Positions 9,006-40,292 of a DNA stretch of 64,000 bases are shown piece after piece. The DNA is from Deltaproteobacteria bacterium (GTDB taxonomy: Bacteria; Desulfobacterota; Desulfarculia; Adiutricales; Adiutricaceae). The stretch spans positions 7,262 through 71,261 of the forward strand of contig JAITRL010000298.1 in the NCBI GenBank assembly GCA_031288415.1. Direction: 5' to 3'. Positions within the stretch are counted from its first letter, which is position 1. Every line of letters starts with the position of its first letter. The translations under genes and the position numbers were made by a program. Under the pieces are notes generated by a model. That model searched no databases. It had not been told where the DNA came from and saw only the letters and a program-made list of their open reading frames with translations.

Positions 9006-11048
9006 TTAAATCTGCCCGGACATGGACTTAAAGGCGGCGACCTCCTCCCTGGCCTGGGCGCTGGCCGCCCTGAGGCTCCGGTAAAAGCTCCGGGAGGCTG
9101 ATTCCAAAATCTCCTGGGAGCCGTACTGGGCTGGGATAAAGTGCAGGGCCAGGGCCGCGCCGGCACGGTGGATCTTCTCCTTCTCGCCGGAGAGGCCGAA
9201 GAAAGCTTTCATGTCCTTCTTGAGGAGGATCTCCGAGGCGAAGTCGGCCGCAGTACGGGTGGCGGCGACCAGCCCCAGGGTGCGGTAGCACAGCATGAGC
9301 TGGTCCCGGGGCCGGCTGACGGACAGATCTATGGTCTGGGCGAGGAAGTTCACGAGGACCCTCTCCACCACGGGGCTCCGCCTCTGGCCCAGGATCCAGT
9401 GAATCTGCCGGGCCAGCGACGGTTCCGGCTCGGCCAGGAGCTGCGGCAGGTGGGCGATGAGGTCGGTGTTGGCCTCCAGGATAACCCGCGAGGCCGCCTC
9501 CCTCACTTCGCGCTGGACGTGGCGCGCGGAGGCGGACAGGAAATCCATGTACTCCTTGAGTTCCCGGCCCTTGACCATGCCGATGAGACTGACGATGTCC
9601 GCGGTCGGAAGCGTGGAGTTGAGGAAGAGCCCGAGCTCGTGGCCGCCTCCGGGGGCGCGTTCGGCCACGGCTAAGAGCAGCTGGCTCTTGATCATCTCGT
9701 CGCGGCACTTGGCCGCCGTCGCGGCCAGGAGCCGATGGCTGTCCGGAGGCAGGATACTCAGCAGGCGTCTGAAGGAAACTGCGGCCTCTTCGGGCCTGTC
9801 CTTGAGGGGGGCAAGGGCGATGAGGCCCTCCATCACCGGCTCGGTGGCAAGCCACTTGGGGAATTCCGCCCGCATCTGGTCCAGGGCGGGGGAGGCGGCG
9901 CGGATGAGTCCCTCGAGCTTGCCGAGGATCAGGATCGGAGCCCCGAAGTCCCCCCTGGCGAAGGCGAACTTGACCATCTCCGCCAGGAACTTCAGGACCG
10001 TGCCCTGGCTTTCCGGGTCGCCGTGCTGAACCAGGAGTTCCAGGGTGAGGTCGATGCCCAGACCCAGGTGGCTCCGCTTGGCCTCGTCGGAGAGGAGCCG
10101 CTCCATCTCGGCCCTCTCCTGTGGGCTGATGGCCCAGGTCTGATGACGCCTCCCGGACTCCTGGTAGTCCTCGTCCTGGGATCCGTCATCGTCCCCTTCC
10201 AGGCCAGTTTCGGGCGGGCACAGGTCGCCCTCCTCCGGGAACAGGAAGGACTCCCGGGAGCTGATGCGGGCCCCGTTCCTGATCCAGCTCACGAGGGCCC
10301 CCAAAGCCTTGCCGCCCCCCGACTCCTGAGCCTTGTTGCGGGCGGCGGTGGCCAAGGCCTTGCGGTTGAGGCCATCCAAGGCGGCTTCGCCGGACTGGCC
10401 CACCGCGACCTTGAAGGCCGCTATCTCGGTGACGGGGTCTATCTCCCAGAACTCGTTGGCGGTCTTGTACTTGATGTTCTGAAGGTCCGCCTCCCACAGG
10501 GCGGTCACGAGGTCGTCCTCATCGTCTTCCCGCAACATCCTGAAGCGGTTCAGGTTGTCGATGAGGGTCTCAAGCTCGGAACGGTCCATGCCCTCCATGA
10601 ACTCTATCCACTGGACCCCGTCCCGGAAGAAGGGGAAGACCATCGCGGACTCGCCGGGCTTCTCCTGGTAGACGCTGACCCCCTGGAAGAGGAAGCTGTC
10701 CATGTCCACGAAGAGCTTAAGGGACTCGTGCTCGTCCAGGAACTCCGTGAACCACTCCTGAAGCTTTTCCAGGGAAGCCCGCCGAATCTTGCTGTTTTCC
10801 GGGTACAGGGCGCAGTTCTTCACCGCCACCACGAAGATCTGCATGCCGGCGCGCACGTCTTCGGCGATGTCCCTTTCCCGGTTAAGATCCAGCGCGTTCA
10901 CGAGCCCAGAGGCGCCCTGGAGCGCGGAAGGGGGCGGGACATGCGCGGGCTCCGCCCCGGGCGCCCCCGGCGCAGGCGCGGAGGGCGCCACTGGCGCCGG
11001 CGGAACCGTATGCCCTACGGCTGTTTCCGTGGCCTGGGCCGCGGCCAT
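9006..11048 (-). CDS. Hypothetical alpha-helical-repeat (HEAT-like?) protein whose N-terminal domain is paralogous to that of the adjacent HD-GYP protein
   Basis: 680-aa ORF with protein-like composition and GC3-rich codons. The opposite-strand ORFs are R/G/P-rich junk. No catalytic motif was recognised. Confidence 0.65.
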   Translation of the reverse strand: MAAAQATETAVGHTVPPAPVAPSAPAPGAPGAEPAHVPPPSALQGASGLVNALDLNRERDIAEDVRAGMQIFVVAVKNCALYPENSKIRRASLEKLQEWFTEFLDEHESLKLFVDMDSFLFQGVSVYQEKPGESAMVFPFFRDGVQWIEFMEGMDRSELETLIDNLNRFRMLREDDEDDLVTALWEADLQNIKYKTANEFWEIDPVTEIAAFKVAVGQSGEAALDGLNRKALATAARNKAQESGGGKALGALVSWIRNGARISSRESFLFPEEGDLCPPETGLEGDDDGSQDEDYQESGRRHQTWAISPQERAEMERLLSDEAKRSHLGLGIDLTLELLVQHGDPESQGTVLKFLAEMVKFAFARGDFGAPILILGKLEGLIRAASPALDQMRAEFPKWLATEPVMEGLIALAPLKDRPEEAAVSFRRLLSILPPDSHRLLAATAAKCRDEMIKSQLLLAVAERAPGGGHELGLFLNSTLPTADIVSLIGMVKGRELKEYMDFLSASARHVQREVREAASRVILEANTDLIAHLPQLLAEPEPSLARQIHWILGQRRSPVVERVLVNFLAQTIDLSVSRPRDQLMLCYRTLGLVAATRTAADFASEILLKKDMKAFFGLSGEKEKIHRAGAALALHFIPAQYGSQEILESASRSFYRSLRAASAQAREEVAAFKSMSGQI

Positions 11049-12000
11049 CTTAGGTCCGCGCCTCCTTCACGCTCCCTACCGCAGGGCCTGGCAGCCTGCA
11101 GGAAGGGGATTTTTTCGGACACAAGGCTCAAGGCTCAAGGCGCCCCTGGCGGCTCCTTAGGACAGTGAAGCGGCCTGAGGCATCGGAAGGGTTCGGCGCG
11201 GGGGGGGCGCCGCGGGCGCCTATAAAAACTTTACCACCGTTAAGGGCGACAAGGTTCCAGAGGCATCGAAGGGCGCGCGGGGGGCTGGCTGCAGTGAAAG
11301 ATATCCCTGCGGCCGAACCGGGTCCGAGCAACCCCTAGGCGGGAGGGGCCGCAGGAACGCAAGAGGGACTTTCGGTGGGGCGCTGGCAGGAAAGGCGGCC
11401 TTGATGGCCCCGAGGGCCTCCGGGTGAGGCCTTCGGCTGCAACCGGAGGCAGGGCCTGGTTGGCCGAACATTTCAGGACGGTCATGAGGGTCGTCTATGG
11501 CGCGGGCATACCGATAGGTTAAATGTACCACCCTTTCGGTCAGCCGACAAGGCCCTTGGCTCAGTGCAGCCGCAAACGCCCCCTGCCTCGCTTCGGAAGG
11601 CGTTCAGGCTCGAGGTTCCCAGTCTCCGCTAAGCCTCCTCCCGAAAAGAGAGGCGGAAAACGGACCGAAGACCTCTGGAGGACCCGGGCGCGCCTCAGCA
11701 GGCCACCGGCAGCCTCCCGCAGGTCGCGGGCTAAATCGCCTCCGCCTGGGGACGGCCTTTGACAAGCTCCGCTTCCTCGTAAGATCCGCCCCGGATTATC
11801 GGCTCACCGCCGCTCCGGCCCGTCTGGAGCCCAAGGTTCGCCTGCTTCCTTGCTCCTCTGCGGTTACGCGCCTCGGCGCCTCTGTTCCCTTTGCTTTTAG
11901 CAACCCTGGCTTTAGCCTCTCTGCCCGTCTGCTCCTTTGCCTATCCGCCTCCTAGACCCTTTGCAACTCTTATCTCTTTCACGCACACTCTCTCTTTCGG

Positions 12001-12135
12001 TTACTCTTTCTTTTATTCTTTCTTTTACTCTTTCTTTTACTCTTTCTTTTACTCTGTCTTTTACACTTTCTTTTACTATTTCTTTTAATCTTCTTTTACT
12101 CTTTCTTTTACTCTTTCTTTTACTCTTTCTTTTCC
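12001..12135. repeat. 12-bp tandem repeat (TTACTCTTTCTT)n, about 11 copies, the core of a ~470-bp G-depleted pyrimidine-rich tract
   Basis: Read directly: ttactctttctt ttattctttctt ttactctttctt ... with few substitutions. The flanking sequence 11960-12440 continues as degenerate C/T-rich sequence. Confidence 0.9.
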
Positions 12136-13237
12136 TTCTTTCATTCTTTTTCATTCTCTTTTATTTTTTAAGCTCTTTAATTTTTTGCTATTTTTTATCT
12201 ATTTTCTGTTTTGACTATTTTTTACACTTTTTTACTCTTTTTTACGTCTTTTTACTAATTTATACTCTTTTTAGCTCTCGTTTGCCCTATCTTGAACTAT
12301 TTTACCCTCTTTTACTTTCTATTTCTCTCTTTTACTCTCTCTCTTGCTGTCTTTTTTACTCCTTCTCGTTCATTGTTTTGCTCTCTCCCTCTTCCTACCT
12401 TTCGCCCCCCCTCTCCATCCCCCCCCTCTCTCTCTTTCTCGTTCACGTTCGTTCTGTAGCTCCTGCGCTCTGAGCCCTCAGCCGGAATATCTGGTTCCCT
12501 GCGCTATCAGGGCAGTTTCCCAGGGCCTCCCGGTTTGGGGGGTAGCCCCTGGCCCGTCAGGCGGTTCTCCAGACCCTGCAAGGCACAATGCCCGGGCTCT
12601 TTTAAGGAGCAGCACTGAGCCCTTCCGGGCTGTGTCCTGACCTTTCCTCAGGGCCACTTAAGGGCCTTATGGCTGGCTGCCGGAGCTGTCCGGAATCTCC
12701 GGAACTCGGCGGCGCCCCCTCCCGCAGGCCGCTGCCGCAGACGGCGAGGGGGCTCAGGCCAAGCAACGCGGCCTTTGCCGCCCGTAGCCTCGCGAAAACC
12801 GCCTCGAGGAGGGCGCTCTTGCGCGGCCTTAGGCCGAAAGCTTTCCCGGACCCCAGCCGGGCCGGGCCGGTACGGCAAGGCGCCTTTCAGCTTGCCCCAG
12901 GCCCCCGTAACGGAGGGCAGGCGCGGAGACGCGAGACAACCCCTACGGGCGGCAGGGGCGCCGGGATGTTCAGCCTGCGGCAACGCGCCTCCGAGAACGA
13001 GGCAAGCCGCGGCACGCCACTGGGCGGCGGCGCGCGTGAATCCCCAGGTGATCGCCGGCGGCTCAGCCGTAAGGCGGCGCACATGCTCCTGACGCATCTG
13101 CGGGCGCGGCCGGCCCGGGGCCTGCAGGGCCGCTCTGAGCAGTGCGCCTGCCGATGGCCCTGCCGACGGCCCTGCCGACGGCCCTGCCGAGGGCCGCGCA
13201 CCCAGTGGGTCCTTGAAGCAAGGGAGAATGACGGTTC

Positions 13238-19265: not shown

Positions 19266-19350
19266 TTTGTTCCACTAAGTTGGCCGCCGGGGCTGCCGCC
19301 GGCGCGCGGCGTAAAGGCTTAAGAGGCATCAAGAATCGAGGGGGCCCGGG

Positions 19351-19448
19351 CCCAAAGGCTCGAGGGGGCCCGAGCCCAAAGGCTCGAGGGGGCGCAAGGC
19401 CCAAAGGCTTGAGGGGGCGCAAGGCCCAAAGGCTTGAGGGGCTCAAGG
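19351..19448. repeat. 24-25-bp tandem repeat x4 (CCCAAAGGCTYGAGGGGGCSCRAGG), 86-183 bp upstream of the cstA start
   Basis: Units at 19351, 19375, 19400 and 19425, read directly. A degenerate fifth copy lies just upstream (about 19311). Confidence 0.85.
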
Positions 19449-19905: not shown

Positions 19906-20605
19906 TTGTACAGAACTGTTCAGCAACTCCAGTAAACCTGACGGGGAGTTGTACAAGACAGGACAGCAACTACGCAGATTTTAACAAAGAGTTGTACAAA
20001 GCGGTGCAAACTTTTCGAAACGAGGCTCAACAGTTGGCCTGATTATAATGAAAAGCTGTACAAGGCAGTTTAAAAGTTGTTCATTAATTTAGCAGAAATT
20101 ATGGGATATCAAAAACAATTATATTATTTTAATATCGAGTTGTAGCGGACAGGACAGCAATAATTCGAGGGCTGTGGAAATATTGTACAAAACAGAACAA
20201 CGGGTAACATAGTCCAGAGCAGATATTGTACAAGACTGATCCGAAGGAACCCAAGGGCAGAGCAGATGTTGTACAAGGCAGATCCGCAGTAACTCAAGGG
20301 CAGAGTCAAGTGTTGTACAAGACAGAACCTCAAGAACTCAAGGATTGTACAGGGTCTGTACAATGCGTGAAAAATTGTTCCCCAAAGGCGCTAGAAACAG
20401 GAGGCGGGTCTGCCCGCCAAAGCAGGACAACGCAAAAACTGAGTTGTGCGAGATTGCCTGAAGTTGTACAAAGGTGATCGGATGTTGTACAAGTGAATTT
20501 TAGAATTGTGCAGTGCAGATAGCGTGTTGTACAAGACTAAACAGGAACTGAACTAGGGGTTGAGCAGGGGTGAGCAAAGCGAAAAGTACAAGCTGTAGCT
20601 GTACG
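19906..20605. promoter_or_regulatory. Phased array of TTGTACAA palindromes (iteron, centromere or operator-like) in a low-GC block
   Basis: - Perfect TTGTACAA at 19949, 19992, 20183, 20226, 20269, 20313, 20464, 20485 and 20527.
- One-off variants at 19906, 20056, 20345 and 20356.
- Degenerate copies at 20140, 20444 and 20506.
- The spacings are 43/44 bp or 20/21 bp, or sums of these. Confidence 0.85.
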
Positions 20606-32340: not shown

Positions 32341-34941
32341 GGGCGCTCCTGTGCCGGCCGGTGGGGCTTTCCGGCCTGCCTTCCCGCGGCTTGCCGAAGC
32401 TCCCCGCGGCCGGCGCCGTGGCCCTGCCGAGCCTTGCGCATGCTCCGGAAAAAAAAGGCCTCGGCGCCGGCCGCGGGGCATGGGGGACGAGATAAAATTC
32501 GCCTTCCGTCATGTCCCCCGCGTCAGACGGGCGGGGCAGGGCCGGCGACGCGCAACGCCTCTCCGGCGCGCAAGGGCCCGCGGAACAGAACAGTTCGGGA
32601 GAGCGCGCGCTCATGGTTTCCTCGGCTTGAGCCAGGGGATTCCGGGGAGCGACGGGACGGGCAAGGCGCCGGCAAGGCGGCCGGGACTTCGGGGGGCTTG
32701 CCGGCAGGCTTGAATGATGACTCTACTCCAGGAAAACCCGCAAGGCAACCTGACAAGCCGCCGCCCGCCGCGGCCGCGCGCGGCCCGGAAGCGGCCGGGC
32801 CGGCCGCAGGGTTCGGCATGCGCCCCATGCGCCCGCGGATACCGTTCCGGCGGCCAGGCTCACGGGCGCGCCGGGTCCGAACGCTTAAACGACCCGATTT
32901 CCGCGCGTCTCTTTCGCCTCGTTTTTGTAAGACCGTCTCCCGAAACCGGCTGAACCCCAACATGAAATGCGCGTCGTCGAAAGGCGCGTCATAGCCGGAG
33001 GGCGGCCGAGCCCAAGCAGGCCGCGCGGCCGGCCGGGCGCATCCCCTGAAACATCGGGGTTCCCGCGGCTCTCCGGAAGGAGGCGCATGCTCCCTCCGTG
33101 AAGCTCCCGGCCTTCGGGTCCTTCACGGCGAAAAGCCTCCTCCGGACACGGCCGGGCTTTCCCCTGCCGGCCGCGCGCCGCGGAATCGGCCGAGGCGCCG
33201 CGGCCGCCCCGGCAGGTTATTTCTCACGGCCGCCTGGCTCGCGCCCCCAATGCCGCGCCCGCGCGGCGGATTTTCCGGCAGTTCCGGGGCGGGCCGCTTT
33301 CGGAAATGCCTTGTCGCGGGCCTAAGTCATTTTCCGCCGCTGAAGACCGAGCCGGCGCCCGGGCTTGCCTCGCCCCGCGACGCGCCTGGGCCGCCTGCCG
33401 AAGCCCGTCACGTCGGGGGCGATCCGCCCGATTTTCATCAGGCCGGAACTTCCTGAGCGTCTCGCGGCGCCGCCGATAAGGCCGGCCCGGCCCCGGCTCC
33501 CGCTGAGGAACCTCGCGGCGGAAGCGCCGCTTTTCCCCTGAGGGCGGGCCGGCGCTTTCGCGGCAAAACTTTTCGCCCGCCTGTTCACCCGCAAGTCGCC
33601 CGCGAACACTGGCGGCTTTACCGCCCTGCGGTCCCCGCGCCGCGCGATCGGCACGGACCCCTGCGGCAAGCGCCTTTTGCGGAACCTGCCCTGGCCGGCC
33701 AAGAGAAGCCCGGGCAGGCTCCCTTGCGCGCGGCCGCGCGCCGGCCGCGCCCGGGGCCGCTCGTGAGCCTGTACCGCGGGATGGAGAACTGCCGCCGGCC
33801 GGCATATTCAACGCGGCCCTGAGAGAAATCAAGCGGAGACGTTCCCTCTGGCGCCCCGCTCCTTCCGTTCCCTGCGGATGCCTCCCCGCGCCTCCCGCCC
33901 CGCGCGGCCCTAAATCCGGGTGGAGGCCCTGCGGCCGCTGAAGCCCTGCAAGGCGCGTCTTCAGTTCCGGGCGCCGCCGGCCCGGCAAAACCCTTGACCC
34001 GGCCCCCCGGGCCGTACTCCAAGGGCCGGCCGACAGGCAACGGCCCGGAGGGCCGGGCCGGATATCAGCCTTTTGCCGACAAGGCGCCCGACAGCGGGAA
34101 GGCCGAACAGACTTGGAAAGCCCTGTTGCAATCCTTCCGGCACATTGTTAAGCTTTTCAGCGGAAACTGCGGCGGCCCCCTCCGCGCTTATGTTTCCGGA
34201 CCGCTTCAGCCCTCCCGGCCTTTTTTGGGGCCTCTTTGTCAGTAGCCGTGTCCCTCGGCTAGAGGCATGATTTATAATTTATTGGAGTTTAAGCCTTACC
34301 TTATGAATTTAAGCTATCTAATATCTTTCAAAAATTTTGTAAATATATATAATTTATATAAAATAATTTCTTCTCATTGATGTTTTCCTGTAGTCCTCCC
34401 CCTATCTGACCTGACGCCTGACCGCCCAAAACAAGCCCCGCCCGCTGCCGGCTCGCTGGCGCAGCCCCTGCCGCCGCCCGGCACAACCTTCCGAATGCGG
34501 GCCCGATGAACGCGCCTCTGCACTGCCGGATAAGCCTTTGCCGGAGGCAGTCCCGTGACGGCCGGCCTGCCGGGCCGGGCGACGGCTTTCAGCCGCAGCC
34601 TTCCGCCGGCGTCCCCTCATGCATCCCCACGGGCCGAATCCGCAAGGGCTCCGCAAGCCCCGCACCGCCCGGCCCGCAGGGCGGCCAGGCGGAAACTGGC
34701 CTAAGGCTCTGCCAAGCCCCGCAGGCCGACTGCGGCATGGAAGGTTTGGCCTCGCCGGCGCAGGCGGCCGGCCGCCTGCCGGGCACAGGAATTGCGGAAC
34801 GCCCCGCAGGCCTGAAAGCCTGAACGGGGACCGGATGATCCGGAAATACCGCCAGACGGCCGGCTCGTCCCGGGGCTTCGGGGCCGGTTCCCTTGTTTCC
34901 GCGTCAATGACGTCAAATATACGGCGGCCGCCGCGACGGAG

Positions 34942-36201
34942 ATGCGCATGGACGAAGAAACCGCCAAAGACAAAACACGCGCCCCGGCGGCTGACATTAC
35001 CAGAAATGCCTTTGACGCGGCGGGAAAATGGCTGATTTCGTATAAGACGGAAGGCCTGTATGAGATTTTCGGCATTGACTACGACCCGAACAGCGTGATC
35101 TTGAGCGCCGAGCTGCCGGTAATAACGGCCCGTATCAAGGCCGCTGACTTCGTGCGCCTCACGCCCGACAGCGGCAAGCCGATTTCGGGGCCCTGCGGGC
35201 CTGAGGCCGGGGCCGGCGGCAGGCCGGAGGCGCGCGCGCCTCAGCCAGAGCGGAAGCATGATTTGCATCTGCAGCATTTCGAGTTCGACAGCGACGGGAA
35301 AGACGGAAATATCTGGCGGTACATGACATACTCGGCGGAAATAGCAAGGAGATATAACGAGCTGTTCAGGAAAACCGACATAGACGCAAAACCCGCGGAC
35401 ATAGTCACTTACGTCGTATACGCCCCTTCAGTCACCGGCAGCCCTGCCGACGGCTACGGGGCGCGTGACAGTTCCCTGCAGTTCAACGTGAGGCAAATCT
35501 TCCTGGGCCGCCTGATCGAGCCGAACGCCATGATCGAGAGCTGCCGCGAAAAGCTGCGGAATTTGAGCGGCGCCTCGAAAGAAGACGCCTCGGTTTCCGA
35601 AAAGGAATTCGTTTCCCTGGTTTTAATCCCTTTTTTCTTCAATAACCGGCCTAAGGGGGAGCTGGAGGATTATCTGAGCCTGGTTCTTGAGCTGTCCGGC
35701 AAAATCGATGATGCCTCGCTTGCCGCGTTAGTCCTGACGGCCAGCGCTAACCAGATCGACCTTAGCCCGTTCGCGGAGGAATTCCACAGGATGTTCAACC
35801 TTGAAATTGGTGATTTAGTGACCGCCGGCGCGTATTCGGCCGCGCTCAAGGGCAAGCTGAAGGCGGAAAGGAACGCGACCGAGGAGAGAACGGCCAGGCT
35901 GGAGGCGGAAAGGACCGCGGCCGAGGCGAAAAAGACCGCGGCCGAGGCGAAAAAGACCGCGGCCGAGGCGAAAAAGAACGCGGCCGAGGAGAGACAGAAC
36001 GCGGCCGAGGCGAAAAAGAACGCGGCCGAGGAGAAAAAGACCGCGACCGAGGCGAAAAAGAACGCGGCCGAGGCGAAAAAGAACGCGGCCGAGGAGAGAA
36101 CTGCCAGGCTCAAGGCGGAAAGGCGCATTCACGAACTGGAAAAGGCCTTGGCCCTCTCGACAAGGGGCGCGGCCGATCCAGGAGGCGAGCCGGACAAGTG
36201 A
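34942..36201 (+). CDS. Rpn/YhgA-like PD-(D/E)XK nuclease family protein with a C-terminal heptad-repeat coiled coil
   Basis: - The core reads ...AADFVRL...HDLHLQHFEFDSDGKDGNIWRYMTYSAEIARRY...IVTYVVYAP.
- This parallels the Rpn pattern D...hhhhEhQS..D..M..RM..Y...P.V.PhVhY.
- The C-terminus is (AAEAKKN)n flanked by ERTARLEAER motifs.
- The assignment was made by eye only. Confidence 0.55.
   Translation: MRMDEETAKDKTRAPAADITRNAFDAAGKWLISYKTEGLYEIFGIDYDPNSVILSAELPVITARIKAADFVRLTPDSGKPISGPCGPEAGAGGRPEARAPQPERKHDLHLQHFEFDSDGKDGNIWRYMTYSAEIARRYNELFRKTDIDAKPADIVTYVVYAPSVTGSPADGYGARDSSLQFNVRQIFLGRLIEPNAMIESCREKLRNLSGASKEDASVSEKEFVSLVLIPFFFNNRPKGELEDYLSLVLELSGKIDDASLAALVLTASANQIDLSPFAEEFHRMFNLEIGDLVTAGAYSAALKGKLKAERNATEERTARLEAERTAAEAKKTAAEAKKTAAEAKKNAAEERQNAAEAKKNAAEEKKTATEAKKNAAEAKKNAAEERTARLKAERRIHELEKALALSTRGAADPGGEPDK
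35917..36100. repeat. 21-bp (heptad) tandem repeat GCGGCCGAGGCGAAAAAGAMC, about 8.7 copies, inside the Rpn-like CDS
   Basis: Units start every 21 nt from 35917, read directly. Confidence 0.9.
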
Positions 36202-36690
36202 AGGGAATGGCGCCTTCGCCGGGCCGCTTTCGCCCTGGGCCCGCCGTGCCTTTCCTGTAACCGATCCCTCGGCGGCGTCAGCGCCTGACCCGGCTGCCAA
36301 AGCGCCCGCTTCACCCGATCTCAGGATCTTGCGGGTCCTGGCGGTCCATGACGGGTTCCCGCGAGCCGCGCCCGGCCGCCCGGCGCGAGCCGGCCGGGCG
36401 GGCGGACAGCGTGAGGCGCCAGACCTGCCTCGCCTGAGAGCCATGCTCTCCCGAAGACGCCTTCAGCCGCCCCAAGCCTTGCCCGGTTGCCGGGCCAGAC
36501 CGCCGCCGCCCTCCCCGAAAGATTTTTTTTCATGCGACAGGCAAGCGCCGAACCGCTCCTGCCGCCGCGGAGAACCGGCAAGAGCCTGCGGCAATACGCC
36601 TCACCACCCCGCTCCTGGCTTCAGGGCCCGCGACAGCCTCAATACGTCTTTTGGGCGGGCACAGCACAACCGCCGGGCTTGGGGCAGGCG
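36202..36690. repeat. Copy 1 of a ~490-bp conserved non-coding segment following the Rpn-like stop codon
   Basis: It aligns by eye over almost its whole length with 38669-39170. Shared strings include GATCCCTCGGCGGCG, CCATGACGGGTTCCCGCGAGCCGCGCCCGGCCGCCCGGCGCGAGCCGGCC, CTCGCCTGAGAGCCATGCTCTCCCGAAGACGCCTTCAGCCGCCCCAAGCCTTGCCCGG and CTTCAGGGCCCGCGACAGCCTCAATAC. Confidence 0.85.
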
Positions 36691-37200
36691 CACTAGTAGA
36701 ATTATATTAACAAATCATTTAACTAAACATAAGATATCTTGCTATAATATTAGATGATGGAAACTTTAACTGCTATAGATTAATCCTATTAAAAGTTAAT
36801 CTTCTAAATATATTTAATTTTATCAATATCATAATTTATATTACTCACTTCCCTCCATGAACGTTAAAATAGAATATTATAGATTATTTTATTATATCTA
36901 TAAATTACAAAGAGCACCCTTTCGAGGTTACTAATACGTTGTCTCTTACATAAGTCATACGACTACTTCGGCAGGACTTAAAGCGCCATGTAAACACGAT
37001 CGAGAAAAATATAGCACTCATATAGCTGTAACTATTGAAAAAATATATAACTCAATCCCCTTCCCAAAAAATTCATGTTGAATGAATAACACAATCACGT
37101 CAAGTAAAAAATCAATGCAAAGTTAATTCATGAACAATTCCTTGCCGTCTCCCGGGCGCCTTCGGGCTTTATCCTGTCCGCCCCGTCTCGAGCCGTCTGG

Positions 37201-37884
37201 TTGCGGCTGTTCCGGTCGGTATTCTCTTGCGGATGGAACGGGACAGTCGGCGTTCGGCCCTTCCCGGGCAGCCCTGACGCCAGGCCCGACCCCTTGTTTT
37301 CCGCATCGGACCTGACGGCCGACAGGAACCAGATCGACCTTAGCCCGTTCGTGGGGGTATTCAACATGATGTTCGACGTTGAAATGATAGATTTCTTGCT
37401 AGACGGCAAGTATACAGCCGCTATCAAGGGCAAGCTGGAAGCGGAATTGCACTTGGCCGAGGTGATAACGGCCAATCTGGAGTGGGATTTGCTCGCGGCC
37501 AAGAAGAGAACATCCAGGCTGAAAGCGGAAGTACTCATGGCTAGGGCGGAATCGCCCACGGCCGAGGCGAGAACGGCCAAGCTGAAGACGGATTTGCTCG
37601 TGCCCAAGGCGGAATCGCTCACGACCGAGGCGAGAACGGCCAAGCTGAAGACGGATTTGCTCGTGCCCAAGGCGGAAATGCGCGCGGCCGCGGCGAGAAC
37701 GGCCAAGCTGGAGGCGGATTTGCTCGTGGCCAAGGCGGAAATGCGCGCGACGGAGGCGGAATTGCGCGCGGCCGCGGAGAGAACGGCCAGGCTGGAGGCG
37801 GAAAGGCGCCTTCGCGAACTGGAACGGGCCGTGGACCTCGCAGCAAGTGACGCGGCCGATCCAGGATACGGGCCGGACAAATAA
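37201..37884 (+). CDS. Rpn-like C-terminal-only paralog (cassette 2): conserved hinge block plus a different coiled-coil repeat
   Basis: - Shares SDLTADRNQIDLSPF...MMFDVE...AAIKGKLEAE and the tail ERTARLEAERRLRELERAVDL...DK with the full-length gene.
- Has no nuclease domain.
- The repeat is about 60-63 bp (ARTAKLKTDLLVPKAE...).
- The ORF track uses a TTG start. The first ATG is at 37366. Confidence 0.35.
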   Translation: MRLFRSVFSCGWNGTVGVRPFPGSPDARPDPLFSASDLTADRNQIDLSPFVGVFNMMFDVEMIDFLLDGKYTAAIKGKLEAELHLAEVITANLEWDLLAAKKRTSRLKAEVLMARAESPTAEARTAKLKTDLLVPKAESLTTEARTAKLKTDLLVPKAEMRAAAARTAKLEADLLVAKAEMRATEAELRAAAERTARLEAERRLRELERAVDLAASDAADPGYGPDK

Positions 37885-38065
37885 GGAAAATGACGCCTTA
37901 GGCGGGGGGGGGGCGCTTCGCCCTGTCCCCGCCGTGCTTTTCCTGTTGCCGATCCCTCAGCGGCCCCGGCGGCTGACCCGGAAGCCGGAGCGCCCGCTTA
38001 ACCTGACCCCTGCGGATGGAACCGGGACTGTCGGCGTTCGGCCCTTCCCAGGCAGTCCTGGCTCT

Positions 38066-38668
38066 ATGCCCGATCCCTTGCTTTCCGCATCGGACCTGAC
38101 GGCCGGCAGGCGCCTGATCGCCGTTAGCCCTTTCGTGGAGGAATTCGACAGGATGTTCGACGTTAAATTTGCGGATTCCGTGACCAACGGCGCGTATTCG
38201 GCCGCGATCAAGGCCAAGCTGGAGGCGGAAGTTTACGCGGCCAATGCGAGAACGGCCACGCTGGAGGCGGAAGTTTACACGGCAAAGGCGAGAACGGCCA
38301 TGCTGGAGGCGGAAGCTCTCTTGGCCAAGGAGGAAGCGCGCGCGGCCGAGGAGAGAACGGCCATGCTGGAGGCGGAAGCTCTCTTGGCCAAGAAGGAAGC
38401 GCCCGCGGCCGAGGCGGGAACGGCCAGGCTGGAGGCGAAACTGCTCGTGGCCAAGGCGGAAGCGCGCGCGGCCGAGGCAAGAACGGCCGGGCTGGAGACG
38501 GAATTGCTCGTGGCCAAGGCGGAAGCGCGCGCGGCCGAGGCGGAAGTGCGCGTTGCCGAGGAGAGAACGGCCAGGCTTGCGGTGGAAAGGCGCCTTCGCG
38601 AACTGGAAAAGGCCGCGGACCTCTCGGCAAGGGGCGCGCCCGGCCCAGGAGGCGAACCGGACAAGTAA
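38066..38668 (+). CDS. Rpn-like C-terminal-only paralog (cassette 3)
   Basis: - Same conserved blocks: SDLTAGRRLIAVSPFVEEFDRMFDV...AAIKAKLEAE ... ERTARLAVERRLRELEKAADL...GGEPDK.
- The repeats are 63 bp (ERTAMLEAEALLAKEEARAAE).
- The ORF is open from 37847 (GTG). The first ATG is at 38066. Confidence 0.35.
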   Translation: MPDPLLSASDLTAGRRLIAVSPFVEEFDRMFDVKFADSVTNGAYSAAIKAKLEAEVYAANARTATLEAEVYTAKARTAMLEAEALLAKEEARAAEERTAMLEAEALLAKKEAPAAEAGTARLEAKLLVAKAEARAAEARTAGLETELLVAKAEARAAEAEVRVAEERTARLAVERRLRELEKAADLSARGAPGPGGEPDK

Positions 38669-39170
38669 AGGACATGACGCCTGCGGCGGGGCGCTTTCGC
38701 CCTGGACCCGCCGCGCCTTTCCTGTTGCCGATCCCTCGGCGGCGCCGGCGGCTGACCCGGCAGCCAAAGCGCCCGCATCGCCCGATCTCAGGGTCTTGCG
38801 GCTCTTGGCGGCCCATGACGGGTTCCCGCGAGCCGCGCCCGGCCGCCCGGCGCGAGCCGGCCGGCCGGGCGGACAAAGGGAGGCGCCAGGCCTTCCTCGC
38901 CTGAGAGCCATGCTCTCCCGAAGACGCCTTCAGCCGCCCCAAGCCTTGCCCGGCTGCCGGGCCTGACCGCCGCCGGCCCTCCCCGAAGGGCTTTTTTTTC
39001 ATGCGGCAGGCAGGCAGGCGCCGATCCGCTCCTTCCGGCGCGGAGATCCGGCAAGGGCCCGCGTCAATACGCCTCGCCAGCCCGCTCCCGGCTTCAGGGC
39101 CCGCGACAGCCTCAATACTCCATTTGCGCGGGCGCCGCAAATTCGGCGGGGTTGGGGCAGCGCGCCGCCT
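38669..39170. repeat. Copy 2 of the ~490-bp conserved post-stop segment
   Basis: See 36202-36690. High identity by eye, with small indels. Confidence 0.85.
38975..38999 (+). terminator. Weak intrinsic-terminator candidate inside the conserved 3' segment (5-bp stem plus T8)
   Basis: GCCCT-ccccga-AGGGC followed by TTTTTTTT. The homologous position in copy 1 (36500-36530) keeps the T8 run but has a poorer stem. Confidence 0.3.
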
Positions 39171-39310
39171 TATCCTCCCGCGCCGCCTGGTATGCCGTTC
39201 GCCTTGAGGCGGGCCGCCGCCCCGTGTCTGACCGACAGGCCCGGTTCCGGGCGTTCAGCCCGTGTTCCCCCTGATCTTGAGCGTTTCGGCAATTCCGCCC
39301 CTTCTCACCG

Positions 39311-39387
39311 TCTTCCAACCTTCTTCCAACCTTCTTCCAACCTCCTTCCGGCCCTCTTCCAACCTTCATCCGGCCGTCTTCCGGGCG
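39311..39387. repeat. 11-bp tandem repeat (TCTTCCAACCT), about 7 copies, decaying toward the 3' end
   Basis: Units start at 39311, 39322, 39333, 39344, 39355, 39366 and 39377, read directly. Confidence 0.8.
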
Positions 39388-40292
39388 CCTTCCTGCCTTA
39401 TCCTGTCCATGCTGCCCAGGCCATCGGGTTCCGCCTGCTCTGGACGATGCTCTCTTCCTGACGGGGCAGGGGCCGTCCATTTTCGGCCATTACCAGAAAG
39501 CCCTGCCGCCGCGACTTCTCGCGGTTCAACGGCTGTCGCCGGGACGGTTGCCGCAGGCACGGCCCCCGCGCGCTCTCCGCGCGCAAGGTCATCGGCTTTC
39601 CCCTCCTGCGGCTGCCGCATTTACGGCGCCGCAACCCGGGCGGCGCGAGGGCGGATTCCTGCAGGGGGAAGCCGGCCCGCCCGGACTTCGCCGGGAGGCG
39701 CAGGCCCGTCCGCTCCTGAGACTCCTGCAGCGCGCGGTTTCCGCCGCTCCTAAGACGCCTGCAGCGCGGTTTCCGCCGCCAGGGCCGAGGTTTTGCTTCC
39801 GGCTTCTTTCAGGGCCTTTCCCTGCGGCGGGGTCCCCGCTCTTGGCCGGCGGTTTCCGCCGCCAGGCCTGCAACGGGCTTTTGCCGCCTGATCGGCGCCT
39901 GTGCCGGGCGCCCTAAATGTCCGGCCTTGCCCGCCGGCTTTCCTGAACCCGCCCGAACGCCCCGTGCCGCATTCCTTTCAGGCCGCCCTGCGGCGCGGGA
40001 AGGCTTCCGGCCTTGCCCCGGCCTCCTGAGGCCGGCGGCGGCCAAGCCCCGGCTTCCGTAACCCCGGCCCGGCATGACCGGCCCTCGTCTGGGGCCCGGA
40101 CTCTCCTGCAGGCTCCGCCTTCCCGGCACTCTGCCCCGCCAGGCGCTTCCCGGCGGGAAACCCAGCCTCCCGCGGGAGTCGCCCTGGGGAAAACCCGCGC
40201 CGCAGGCCGCCGGCTTTCTTTACGGGCGGCCCGGGCCTCCCGCGGACACCCGGGCCGCCGGAGCGCTCACGCCCAGTCCGCGCCGGCGCGGC

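Follow-up and report, generated by a model that had tools for sequence, protein, structure and literature searches.

Why should a single gene be followed, on the same strand, by two copies of nothing but its C-terminal part, each copy with repeats unlike those of the others in number and sequence? The question is raised by a locus between positions 34942 and 39170 of a 64,000-nucleotide (nt) stretch of contig JAITRL010000298.1 (Deltaproteobacteria bacterium, assembly GCA_031288415.1), which is referred to here as the window. The protein encoded by its first gene, ORF1, is identical to an NCBI entry (P0001) from a metagenome-assembled genome (MAG) labelled 'Deltaproteobacteria bacterium'. With a probability of roughly 55%, we consider the locus to be a horizontally acquired and highly divergent locus of the Rpn type (RpnL/RpnS-like) with two RpnSs-like duplicates. 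The rpn genes are toxin–antitoxin 'genes within genes' (Zhong et al. 2023, PMC10400941): the long product RpnL is a toxic nuclease, and translation from an internal start gives a shorter protein, RpnS, that corresponds to the C-terminal domain alone, binds to RpnL and inhibits it. Helix 1 of RpnS contains 4-aa repeats which start 8-20 residues past the Met and whose number varies between strains, and RpnL is blocked solely by an RpnS of matching repeat number (PMC10400941). Stand-alone rpnSs genes are known after rpnE (ypaA = rpnESs, which is expressed) and, in some strains, after rpnC (rpnCSs); these downstream copies arose independently, each from its own upstream gene (PMC10400941).

The list of open reading frames (ORFs) and the protein alignment confirm the outline given by the first-pass annotation, i.e. 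a full-length gene and two C-terminal-only copies on the same strand. All three share a 5' block, …LTA…I.(L/V)SPF…F..MF…G.Y(S/T)AA(L/I)K.KL.AE, and a 3' block, ERTARL..ERR…ELE.A..L….PG..PDK, with a variable middle between them (Table 1). Searches of the rest of the 64 kb with tblastn and blastn found no further tail copies. The GC contents of the three codon positions of ORF1 (0.58/0.45/0.75) are coding-like. Its N-terminal domain has 55% GC versus approximately 70% for the genome, which is consistent with horizontal acquisition of ORF1.

Relatives of ORF1 were collected in several steps. A word-indexed search of 5.8 billion clustered proteins with the N-terminal domain found ORF1's own entry alone, while HMMER, run exhaustively against 1.84 billion representatives, gave three hits and added P0002 (a fragment of 106 aa) and P0003 (337 aa, from another Deltaproteobacteria MAG, locus L002). 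Further searches of the 5.8e9 proteins with P0003 and the family profile added P0004 (363 aa, locus L003) and P0005 (123 aa). No downstream tail copies were found at the loci of P0003 and P0004. Related loci were also sought in metagenome contigs, where none was found, and in GTDB genomes, where only the known P0003 contig was recovered; an exact-pattern scan of metagenomes for the 3' block gave six chance matches, none of them homologous.

These relatives connect ORF1 to the Rpn family by a chain of links. ORF1 matched P0003 with E=1.7e-4 by phmmer among 1.84e9 proteins and with 4e-14 in pairwise BLASTP. It also matched, across the core, the 'transposase' of the Alicyclobacillus plasmid pAACI01 (BLASTP 9e-7), which P0004 reached with 1e-6 in tblastn. 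The Rpn models considered were PF04754 Transposase_31, PF12784 PDDEXK_2 and TIGR01784, the 'Rpn family recombination-promoting nuclease/putative transposase' (cut-off 52.1 bits). Below its cut-off, TIGR01784 scored 34.5 bits (E=1.9e-8) with the Alicyclobacillus protein and, over the catalytic core, 20.2 bits (E=4.3e-4) with P0004 and 13.9 bits (E=0.036) with P0003. The best PDB match of the Alicyclobacillus protein was the RpnA_S crystal chain 7th0 (E=0.031), and both P0003 and P0004 keep a segment which aligns to the 'G.p…I…TGLs.EEl' module of the Alicyclobacillus protein and RpnA_S. Alignment of the family with E. coli RpnA/B/C/E by hhalign gave E=3.1e-3 (probability 10%), or E=5.4e-4 (probability 30%) with bridging sequences, and paired EFQS…RF..Y…vVlY of the family with IEHQS…FRMMRY…LFYHG of E. 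coli Rpn.

Alignments also bear on the active site. Mutagenesis showed that the residues D11, D63, E82, Q84 and R94 are important in RpnA (PMC5350276). ORF1 residues D25, D69, E114, D116 and R126 align to these, and four of the five are kept; EFQ(S/T) is retained in P0003, P0004 and the Alicyclobacillus protein. Because the sub-threshold and transitive links are concordant and the catalytic positions are conserved, ORF1 probably lies within the broad Rpn/TIGR01784 clade, and its N-terminal domain is probably a distant Rpn-type PD-(D/E)XK domain. The label Rpn/PD-(D/E)XK given by the first-pass annotation is supported only indirectly, by a homology chain and by four of five catalytic positions; the profile check of 34942-36201 gave no curated match.

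The internal start of the rpn genes has a counterpart at this locus. A Met is conserved at the head of the shared 5' block, encoded by ATG at 35791 in ORF1, at 37366/37369 in copy 2 and at 38153 in copy 3, and is preceded by a Shine-Dalgarno (SD)-like motif which is formed by Glu-Glu-Phe codons. The same combination occurs in P0003, P0004 and the Alicyclobacillus gene, and it resembles the experimentally verified internal start of rpnA (Table 1). The sequence contains the ribosome-binding-site-like motif and ATG by which an internal start of RpnL/RpnS systems is recognized, and translation from it is predicted. The conserved ATGs at 37366/37369 and 38153 are the likely starts of the two tail-only genes, although copy 2 has an alternative ATG at 37384 (MIDFL), which matches the 'MTDFL' start of the Alicyclobacillus gene.

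The arrangement of a full gene with downstream tails is also found elsewhere. Plasmid pAACI01 of Alicyclobacillus acidocaldarius (NC_013206.1; locus L015, 1477-2725) contains the full gene of WP_015759772.1, annotated as transposase, and two tail-only ORFs of 64 and 73 aa, annotated as hypothetical, which are 78% and 37% identical to the tail of the full gene. The block M[T/A]D[F/L]L.ELE.EF is common to the three copies, and their C-terminal ends are conserved as well. There are no 4-aa repeats in the full gene, whereas KGIH-KGEL is present in the first small ORF and KGIQ-KGLQ-QGLQ-QGLQ-QGLL in the second, so that this closest annotated relative resembles the window in having conserved ends and a variable repeat number. 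It looks like an unannotated locus of RpnL and two RpnSs. It differs from the window in that its tails are short (57-73 aa) with 4-aa repeats and an HTH (helix-turn-helix)-like end matching RpnA_S, and its small ORFs abut the full gene without long spacers. E. coli K-12 ypaA (NC_000913.3; locus L014, 7817-8002) is annotated as a pseudogene in RefSeq, yet it is intact and corresponds to the tail of RpnE alone; it begins 13 nt past rpnE and has a different repeat segment (QEGKLEGLHEQ vs QEGMHEQ).

The parallel drawn with E. coli Rpn proteins, a conserved nuclease domain with a hypervariable, repeat-bearing C-terminus, was apt. The locus shares several features with E. coli RpnL/RpnS (PMC10400941, PMC5350276): a full-length protein, putatively of the PD-(D/E)XK type in the window, whose C-terminal helical tail is variable; an SD-like motif and ATG where the tail begins; tandem repeats of amino acids in the early part of helix 1, which vary from copy to copy; an origin by tandem direct duplication; and a foreign, horizontally moved gene. 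The pairs rpnE-ypaA and rpnC-rpnCSs also have the tail-only copy directly downstream on the same strand. The opinion that such a set of C-terminal cassettes had not been described did not hold, as downstream C-terminal-only rpnSs genes have been published (PMC10400941); ypaA was checked and the pAACI01 locus was found in this study.

The origin of the copies can be read from their junctions. Copies 2 and 3 form a tandem duplicate of 783 bp (37228-37997 vs 38011-38776), and the non-coding segments D1 and D3 which follow copies 1 and 3 are 88.4% identical with indels of 2, 4 and 1 nt. Upstream of the copy 2 tail, 37144-37281 is 71% identical to the non-coding segment X (39373-39510) over 139 nt (E=4e-19), and U2 and U3 differ by a 1-nt indel. 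ORF2 and ORF3 each have a spurious 5' extension, made of copied non-coding DNA and differing between the copies by a 1-nt indel. The junctions are consistent with two rounds of tandem direct duplication, by which rpn arrays are held to arise (PMC10400941). In the first round, a stretch from the middle of ORF1 to X would have been duplicated directly in tandem, which would have joined X to the tail at about codon 250. In the second round, of 783 bp, D (after ~110 nt) would have been joined to U at a CTTGCGG microhomology to give copies 2 and 3. A GC-rich near-perfect palindrome (CGCCCGGCCGCCCGGC…GCCGGCCGGGCGGGCG) is present in D1 (36369-36404) and D3 (38836-38871), ~170 nt past the stop codons, and could be a REP (repetitive extragenic palindromic)-like or hairpin element. 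A tandem repeat of 11/22/33 nt (ACCGTCTTCCAACCTTCTTCCG, ~3.5-7 copies) lies at 39307-39397, just upstream of X.

The repeats of the three tails are related. Tandem Repeats Finder confirmed a 21-bp unit in ~9 copies in copy 1 (x9.2 at 35902-36094) and units of the 63-bp type in copy 2 (63 bp x3.4 at 37545-37758) and copy 3 (63 bp x4.1 and 42 bp x2.5 at 38212-38542). The repeat regions had been described as completely different, which is not so. Every core is in heptad (21-nt) phase, the cores of copies 2 and 3 align at 80-81% identity (37491-37699 vs 38338-38545) with one 63-nt unit in common, and the 21-nt unit of copy 1 aligns to the copy 2 and 3 cores at 76-78%. The repeats start ~26 residues past the conserved Met, in a region predicted to form an uninterrupted helix; AlphaFold2 predicted a single long helix at residues 289-410 of ORF1, with a predicted local distance difference test (pLDDT) score of 80-89 across 320-400. 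The number and sequence of the repeats vary among copies 1-3 and the related metagenome contig L001 described below, and the unit has 7 or 21 aa, not 4 aa. Repeat variation in HsdS was likened to that in RpnS (PMC10400941). In the HsdS subunits of type I restriction-modification systems (EcoR124I/II with TAEL repeats), too, the number of short helical coiled-coil spacer repeats sets specificity, but HsdS belongs to a different protein family and has no array of tail-only genes.

Shared blocks around a variable core invite the interpretation, made by the first-pass annotation, that copies 2 and 3 are silent donors of a programmed cassette bank which replace the C-terminus of ORF1 through the blocks by homologous recombination or gene conversion. 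Direct-repeat homology blocks of ~150 and ~105 nt do flank the variable core, and D1 and D3 (88%) are more alike than the tails, which may point to gene conversion or a mosaic history. Fusions between an rpn N-terminal domain and the downstream rpnSs region have been found in nature, and the speculation has been made that RpnL could trigger this kind of recombination (PMC10400941). However, the blocks are 75-86% identical with short longest perfect runs and would be poor RecA substrates, there are two donors only, and deletion between the direct repeats would destroy the bank. No dedicated recombinase, reverse transcriptase, inverted repeats or A-biased mutation was found. We consider such a mechanism highly improbable.

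Several well-known systems share parts of this layout. In Rhs/CdiA, promoter-less 3' fragments (orphan modules) follow the full gene, have a short homology block in common and can be recombined into the place of the expressed C-terminus; the variable part there is a toxin domain with an immunity gene, whereas in the window it is a repeat-bearing helix and there is no immunity-like gene. Neisseria pilE/pilS and Borrelia vlsE consist of one expressed full gene and truncated copies in which shared blocks enclose variable segments. These systems have many cassettes and highly conserved handles and encode surface antigens, in contrast to the two copies, the handles of 75-86% identity and the cytoplasmic nuclease-like protein of the window. 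A diversity-generating retroelement was rejected, as the differences are spread over the four bases without A-bias and no reverse transcriptase is present among the annotated neighbours. A shufflon or an invertible hsdS-type system was rejected as well, all copies being direct, the D1/D3 palindromes being the only inverted repeats and no recombinase being nearby.

The sole close relative locus, L001 (JGI Ga0466728_393775), is a 1.3-kb metagenome contig which is 78% identical to the window and lacks the catalytic part. Its gene is broken just after '…EFIRMF' by ~560 bp (514-1070) comprising an AT-rich stretch and an integrase fragment. The fragment, a truncated Arm domain of the P4 type (PF13356, E=9.5e-21), reads in frame into the tail, which bears another distinct set of heptad repeats. 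This raises the alternative that the 3' part of the gene serves as an insertion target for mobile elements with P4-type integrases, the tail copies being displaced or duplicated target ends of the attL/attR type. The resumption of the L001 tail after the interruption, the end of P0002 at the very point of interruption and the 439-bp AT-rich island between copies 1 and 2 would fit such a history. Nevertheless, we regard it as a very remote explanation for the window: an integrase or its fragment is absent from the window, the breakpoints of copies 2 and 3 lie at about codon 250 and not at the L001 insertion codon 286, the DNA at the upstream junction of copy 2 was copied from the host and not from an element, and copies 2 and 3 form a plain tandem duplicate of 783 bp. 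A tRNA-linked island was rejected, as no tRNAs were found.

The sequence divergence of the copies can be compared with that of the duplicated non-coding DNA. The coding flanks are 75-86% identical among the copies versus 84-88% for the duplicated non-coding DNA, so that the 'conserved flanks', viewed as recombination handles, are conserved no better than non-coding sequence. The nucleotide alignment of the three copies mapped the boundaries and the duplication junctions and did not find the flanks specially conserved. Between copies 1 and 3 the coding flanks diverged by 18.3% versus 11.6% in the non-coding D (Fisher p=0.018), whereas the corresponding difference between copies 2 and 3 was not significant. 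No indel was found in 255 nt of coding flanks versus approximately one per 130 nt in the non-coding copies (1, 2, 4 and 5 nt), which is weak evidence that the reading frame is maintained in the tail copies. The ratio of nonsynonymous to synonymous substitution rates (dN/dS) was 0.49 between ORF1 and the orthologous L001 fragment. Rapid diversification of the tails, as proposed earlier, fits the data (dN/dS 1.1-1.4, flanks of copies 1 and 3 diverging beyond the non-coding DNA with p=0.018), but the data fit diversifying selection on functional tails and near-neutral drift alike.

Near-neutral drift is the basis of the strongest competing explanation, which takes the locus for an Rpn-like gene that was acquired horizontally and is decaying. 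Two illegitimate or tandem duplications of its 3' part would have been followed by neutral drift and repeat slippage, and ORF1 itself would perhaps be functionless too. The evidence for it also weighs against a working Rpn-type locus. The shared blocks have a dN/dS of 1.09-1.37, with differences even over the codon positions, which neutral decay predicts equally. In a neutral simulation at 0.10 substitutions per site, each copy stayed stop-free 22% of the time (P ~0.22 per copy). The open frames are weak evidence of function because the repeat cores are stop-free in 5-6 of the 6 frames, as composition leads one to expect. The flanks are no better conserved than the duplicated non-coding DNA, the 5' ends of ORF2 and ORF3 consist of copied non-coding DNA, and the SD-like motif of copy 2 is degenerate (GGGGGTA), i.e. 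lost. L001 is visibly degraded, being fragmented and containing an integrase remnant, and no other convincing genes occur in the surrounding 7.8 kb. In ORF1, the Q of the D…ExQ motif is replaced by D (D116), and a 29-aa insert absent in all relatives splits the D strand from the ExD strand; the GC content of the insert is host-like, compared with 55% in the remainder of the N-terminal domain. The Q-to-D change together with the insert in the core means that ORF1 may be inactive.

Other points against the Rpn-type reading concern the family assignment. Scans of the three ORFs against Pfam, NCBIfam, PADLOC and PHROGs gave coiled-coil noise only and no Rpn or PD-(D/E)XK match for ORF1, which remained unmatched in Pfam and NCBIfam even at E<=1; for ORF1 and all its relatives, each score with a curated model was below the threshold. 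Neither the ORF1 N-terminal domain (phmmer) nor the family profile matched any PDB sequence. In the single-sequence AlphaFold2 model of ORF1, residues 1-195 had a pLDDT below 50 and the N-terminal domain was unusable, and the model of P0004 from a four-sequence alignment was mediocre (pLDDT 60, predicted template modelling score 0.48). Its order, alpha-beta-beta-alpha-beta-beta-beta, is compatible with a PD-(D/E)XK fold; Foldseek gave nothing at E<=1e-3 against PDB with this model, and its weak matches include EcoO109I, McrC, Card1 and BspD6I. The HTH-like three-helix end (DUF4351 / RpnA_S fold) is absent from the tails of the window, which end with …ELEKA..L…PGGEPDK and are unmatched by PF14261. 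The comparative support is thin, as the family totals five proteins across the libraries of 5.8e9 and 1.84e9 sequences.

Against dead duplications, each of the three copies keeps the homologous frame open, without a frameshifting indel in the flanks as opposed to the indels of 1, 2, 4 and 5 nt in the non-coding DNA, and copy 3 has kept the Met and the SD-like motif. The divergence of the flanks of copies 1 and 3, faster than that of the adjacent non-coding DNA, is not predicted by neutrality alone, and the E. coli counterpart ypaA, although called a pseudogene, is expressed (PMC10400941). We consider dead duplications a somewhat unlikely explanation.

On the Rpn-type reading, ORF1 would be the long form, a nuclease-like N-terminal domain joined to a long alpha-helical tail of heptad repeats, for which we infer nuclease or toxin activity. 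The internal start (GGAGGA and ATG 35791) would probably yield the tail alone, an RpnS-like small protein which would hold the long form in check by binding it via the helix. Copies 2 and 3, if expressed, would be RpnSs-like stand-alone tail genes whose tails would later have become different through fast amino-acid change and through slippage of, or unequal exchange between, the 21-nt-phased repeats. An extension of this reading is a tail array serving as a working specificity reservoir: exchange promoted by Rpn or mediated by RecA would re-tip the nuclease with a coiled coil of another length and change its silencing partner, and the tails would also act as antitoxins against incoming related Rpn toxins. 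We consider this extension improbable; if true, it would represent a coiled-coil 'length-code' of toxin–antitoxin specificity with built-in cassette switching.

Signals for transcription were sought around the genes. Most promoter-like matches of the region lie within two AT-rich islands, one upstream of ORF1 and the other upstream of copy 2. The first island is a candidate promoter region for ORF1, and the second may play this part for copies 2 and 3 or may be an insertion of foreign DNA. The islands are weakly similar to each other (34333-34369 vs 36798-36837, 80% over ~40 nt). A terminator-like hairpin with a T-run is present in D3 at 38975-39000. Together with the promoter-like matches of the islands, it suggests that the locus has two transcription units, as judged from consensus matches alone. 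A structured RNA was rejected, since Rfam gave nothing at the gathering threshold and one chance match with E=0.45.

Table 1 Positions in the window of the genes, motifs and duplicated segments discussed, with start motifs of related genes
Feature	Position	Strand	Description
ORF1	34942-36201	+	419 aa; full-length Rpn-like (RpnL-like); putative PD-(D/E)XK N-terminal domain, middle helical domain, long C-terminal helix
Putative catalytic core	35011-35331	+	D25 (FDAAGK), D69 (AADFV), E114 and D116 (FEFDS), R126 (WRY)
In-frame insert in ORF1	35173-35259	+	87 nt, 29 aa, GKPISGPCGPEAGAGGRPEARAPQPERKH; 78% GC; rich in Gly/Pro/Ala/Arg
S1	35791-36201	+	Predicted internal-start small protein (RpnS-like), 136 aa; ATG = Met284, GGAGGA 11 nt upstream
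ORF2 (mechanical)	37201-37884	+	From the list of open frames
ORF3 (mechanical)	37847-38668	+	From the list of open frames
Copy 2 tail-only gene (S2)	37366-37884	+	RpnSs-like; 171-172 aa counted from ATG 37366/37369
Copy 3 tail-only gene (S3)	38153-38668	+	RpnSs-like; 171 aa from conserved ATG; GGAGGA 11 nt 5'
Repeat core 1	35866-36093	+	~9 x 21 nt, AAEAKKN heptads (TRF, heptad layout)
Repeat core 2	37435-37776	+	63-nt (21-aa) units, ARTAKLKTDLLVPKAE… (TRF, heptad layout)
Repeat core 3	38219-38560	+	42-nt and 63-nt units, ERTAMLEAEALLAKEEARAAE… (TRF, heptad layout)
SD-like motif and ATG, ORF1	35791	+	GGAGGA-N11-ATG
SD-like motif and ATG, copy 3	38153	+	GGAGGA-N11-ATG
SD-like motif and ATG, P0003			AAGGAG-N9-ATG
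SD-like motif and ATG, P0004			AGGAGGAG-N9-ATG
SD-like motif and ATG, Alicyclobacillus gene			AAGGAGG-N9-ATG
SD-like motif and ATG, rpnA			AAGGAG-N7-ATG; internal translation initiation site (iTIS), experimentally verified
AT-rich island 1	34265-34385	+	19% GC; sigma-70-like promoter match 34337-34364; ~580 nt upstream of ORF1
AT-rich island 2	36692-37130	.	439 bp, 27% GC; promoter-like matches on both strands (+: 36707-36748)
D1	36202-36691	.	~490-bp non-coding segment 3' of copy 1; T-run ~36515-36535
D3	38669-39165	.	Duplicate of D1, 3' of copy 3
pre-U2/U2	37144-37287	+	Copied non-coding host DNA inside mechanical ORF2; tandem direct duplication junction
Segment X	39373-39510	.	Non-coding host DNA; source or sister copy of pre-U2/U2
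d2 (first ~110 nt of D) and U3	37885-38071	.	Second tandem duplication junction; CTTGCGG-type microhomology

The neighbourhood of the locus consists of ordinary chromosomal genes and is not a defence island. The 7.8-kb gap between a malic enzyme gene and a macro-domain gene is gene-poor, which is unusual for a bacterial chromosome, and may hold decayed genes; no ORF with coding-like GC at the third codon position occurs in 32482-34941 (~2.4 kb upstream) or 39166-40292 (~1.1 kb downstream). Farther away in the window, a T-rich 12-nt tandem array (CTCTTTCTTTTA, ~12-26 copies) at 11992-12272 is embedded in an island of low GC (52%, AT skew -0.45) which has a GC-rich gene on either side. A second low-GC and apparently gene-free island at ~19.3-21 kb contains a GC-rich 24-nt repeat (x4.6, 19336-19448) and a 43-nt repeat (x3, 20215-20343). 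The long ORFs 4947-6608 (-) (553 aa, lower GC) and 9006-11048 (-) (680 aa) are coding-like and have no Pfam match at E<=1e-5.

The locus does not represent a new class of system, since the layout and its origin by duplication were published in 2023 (PMC10400941). As far as can be judged from the sequence, it is set apart from known Rpn loci by extreme divergence, long heptad coiled-coil tails, loss of the HTH-like end and two stand-alone tails. Whereas E. coli Rpn proteins have few repeats, of 4 aa, and an HTH-like three-helix end of RpnS, the tail of the window is one long helix without such an end, with heptads or 21-aa units across 75-115 residues. Other differences from E. coli Rpn are the lack of a curated Rpn match of ORF1, a pairwise identity which is undetectable, the D for Q of ExQ with the 29-aa insert in the core, and the presence of two downstream copies, each with flanks that are ~80% identical to those of the parent.

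The analysis flagged several under-annotated cases of such genes, i.e. ypaA annotated as a pseudogene, the small ORFs of pAACI01 as hypothetical and the Alicyclobacillus gene as a transposase. If the Rpn-type reading is true, the RpnL/RpnS/RpnSs architecture of a nuclease toxin, an internal-start antitoxin and duplicated tails would reach into a lineage which is invisible to the curated models. The variable element of these systems may then be a long heptad coiled coil, beyond the 4-aa repeats on a three-helix bundle, and the claim that pairing depends on repeat length would become testable in a second, structurally simpler format.

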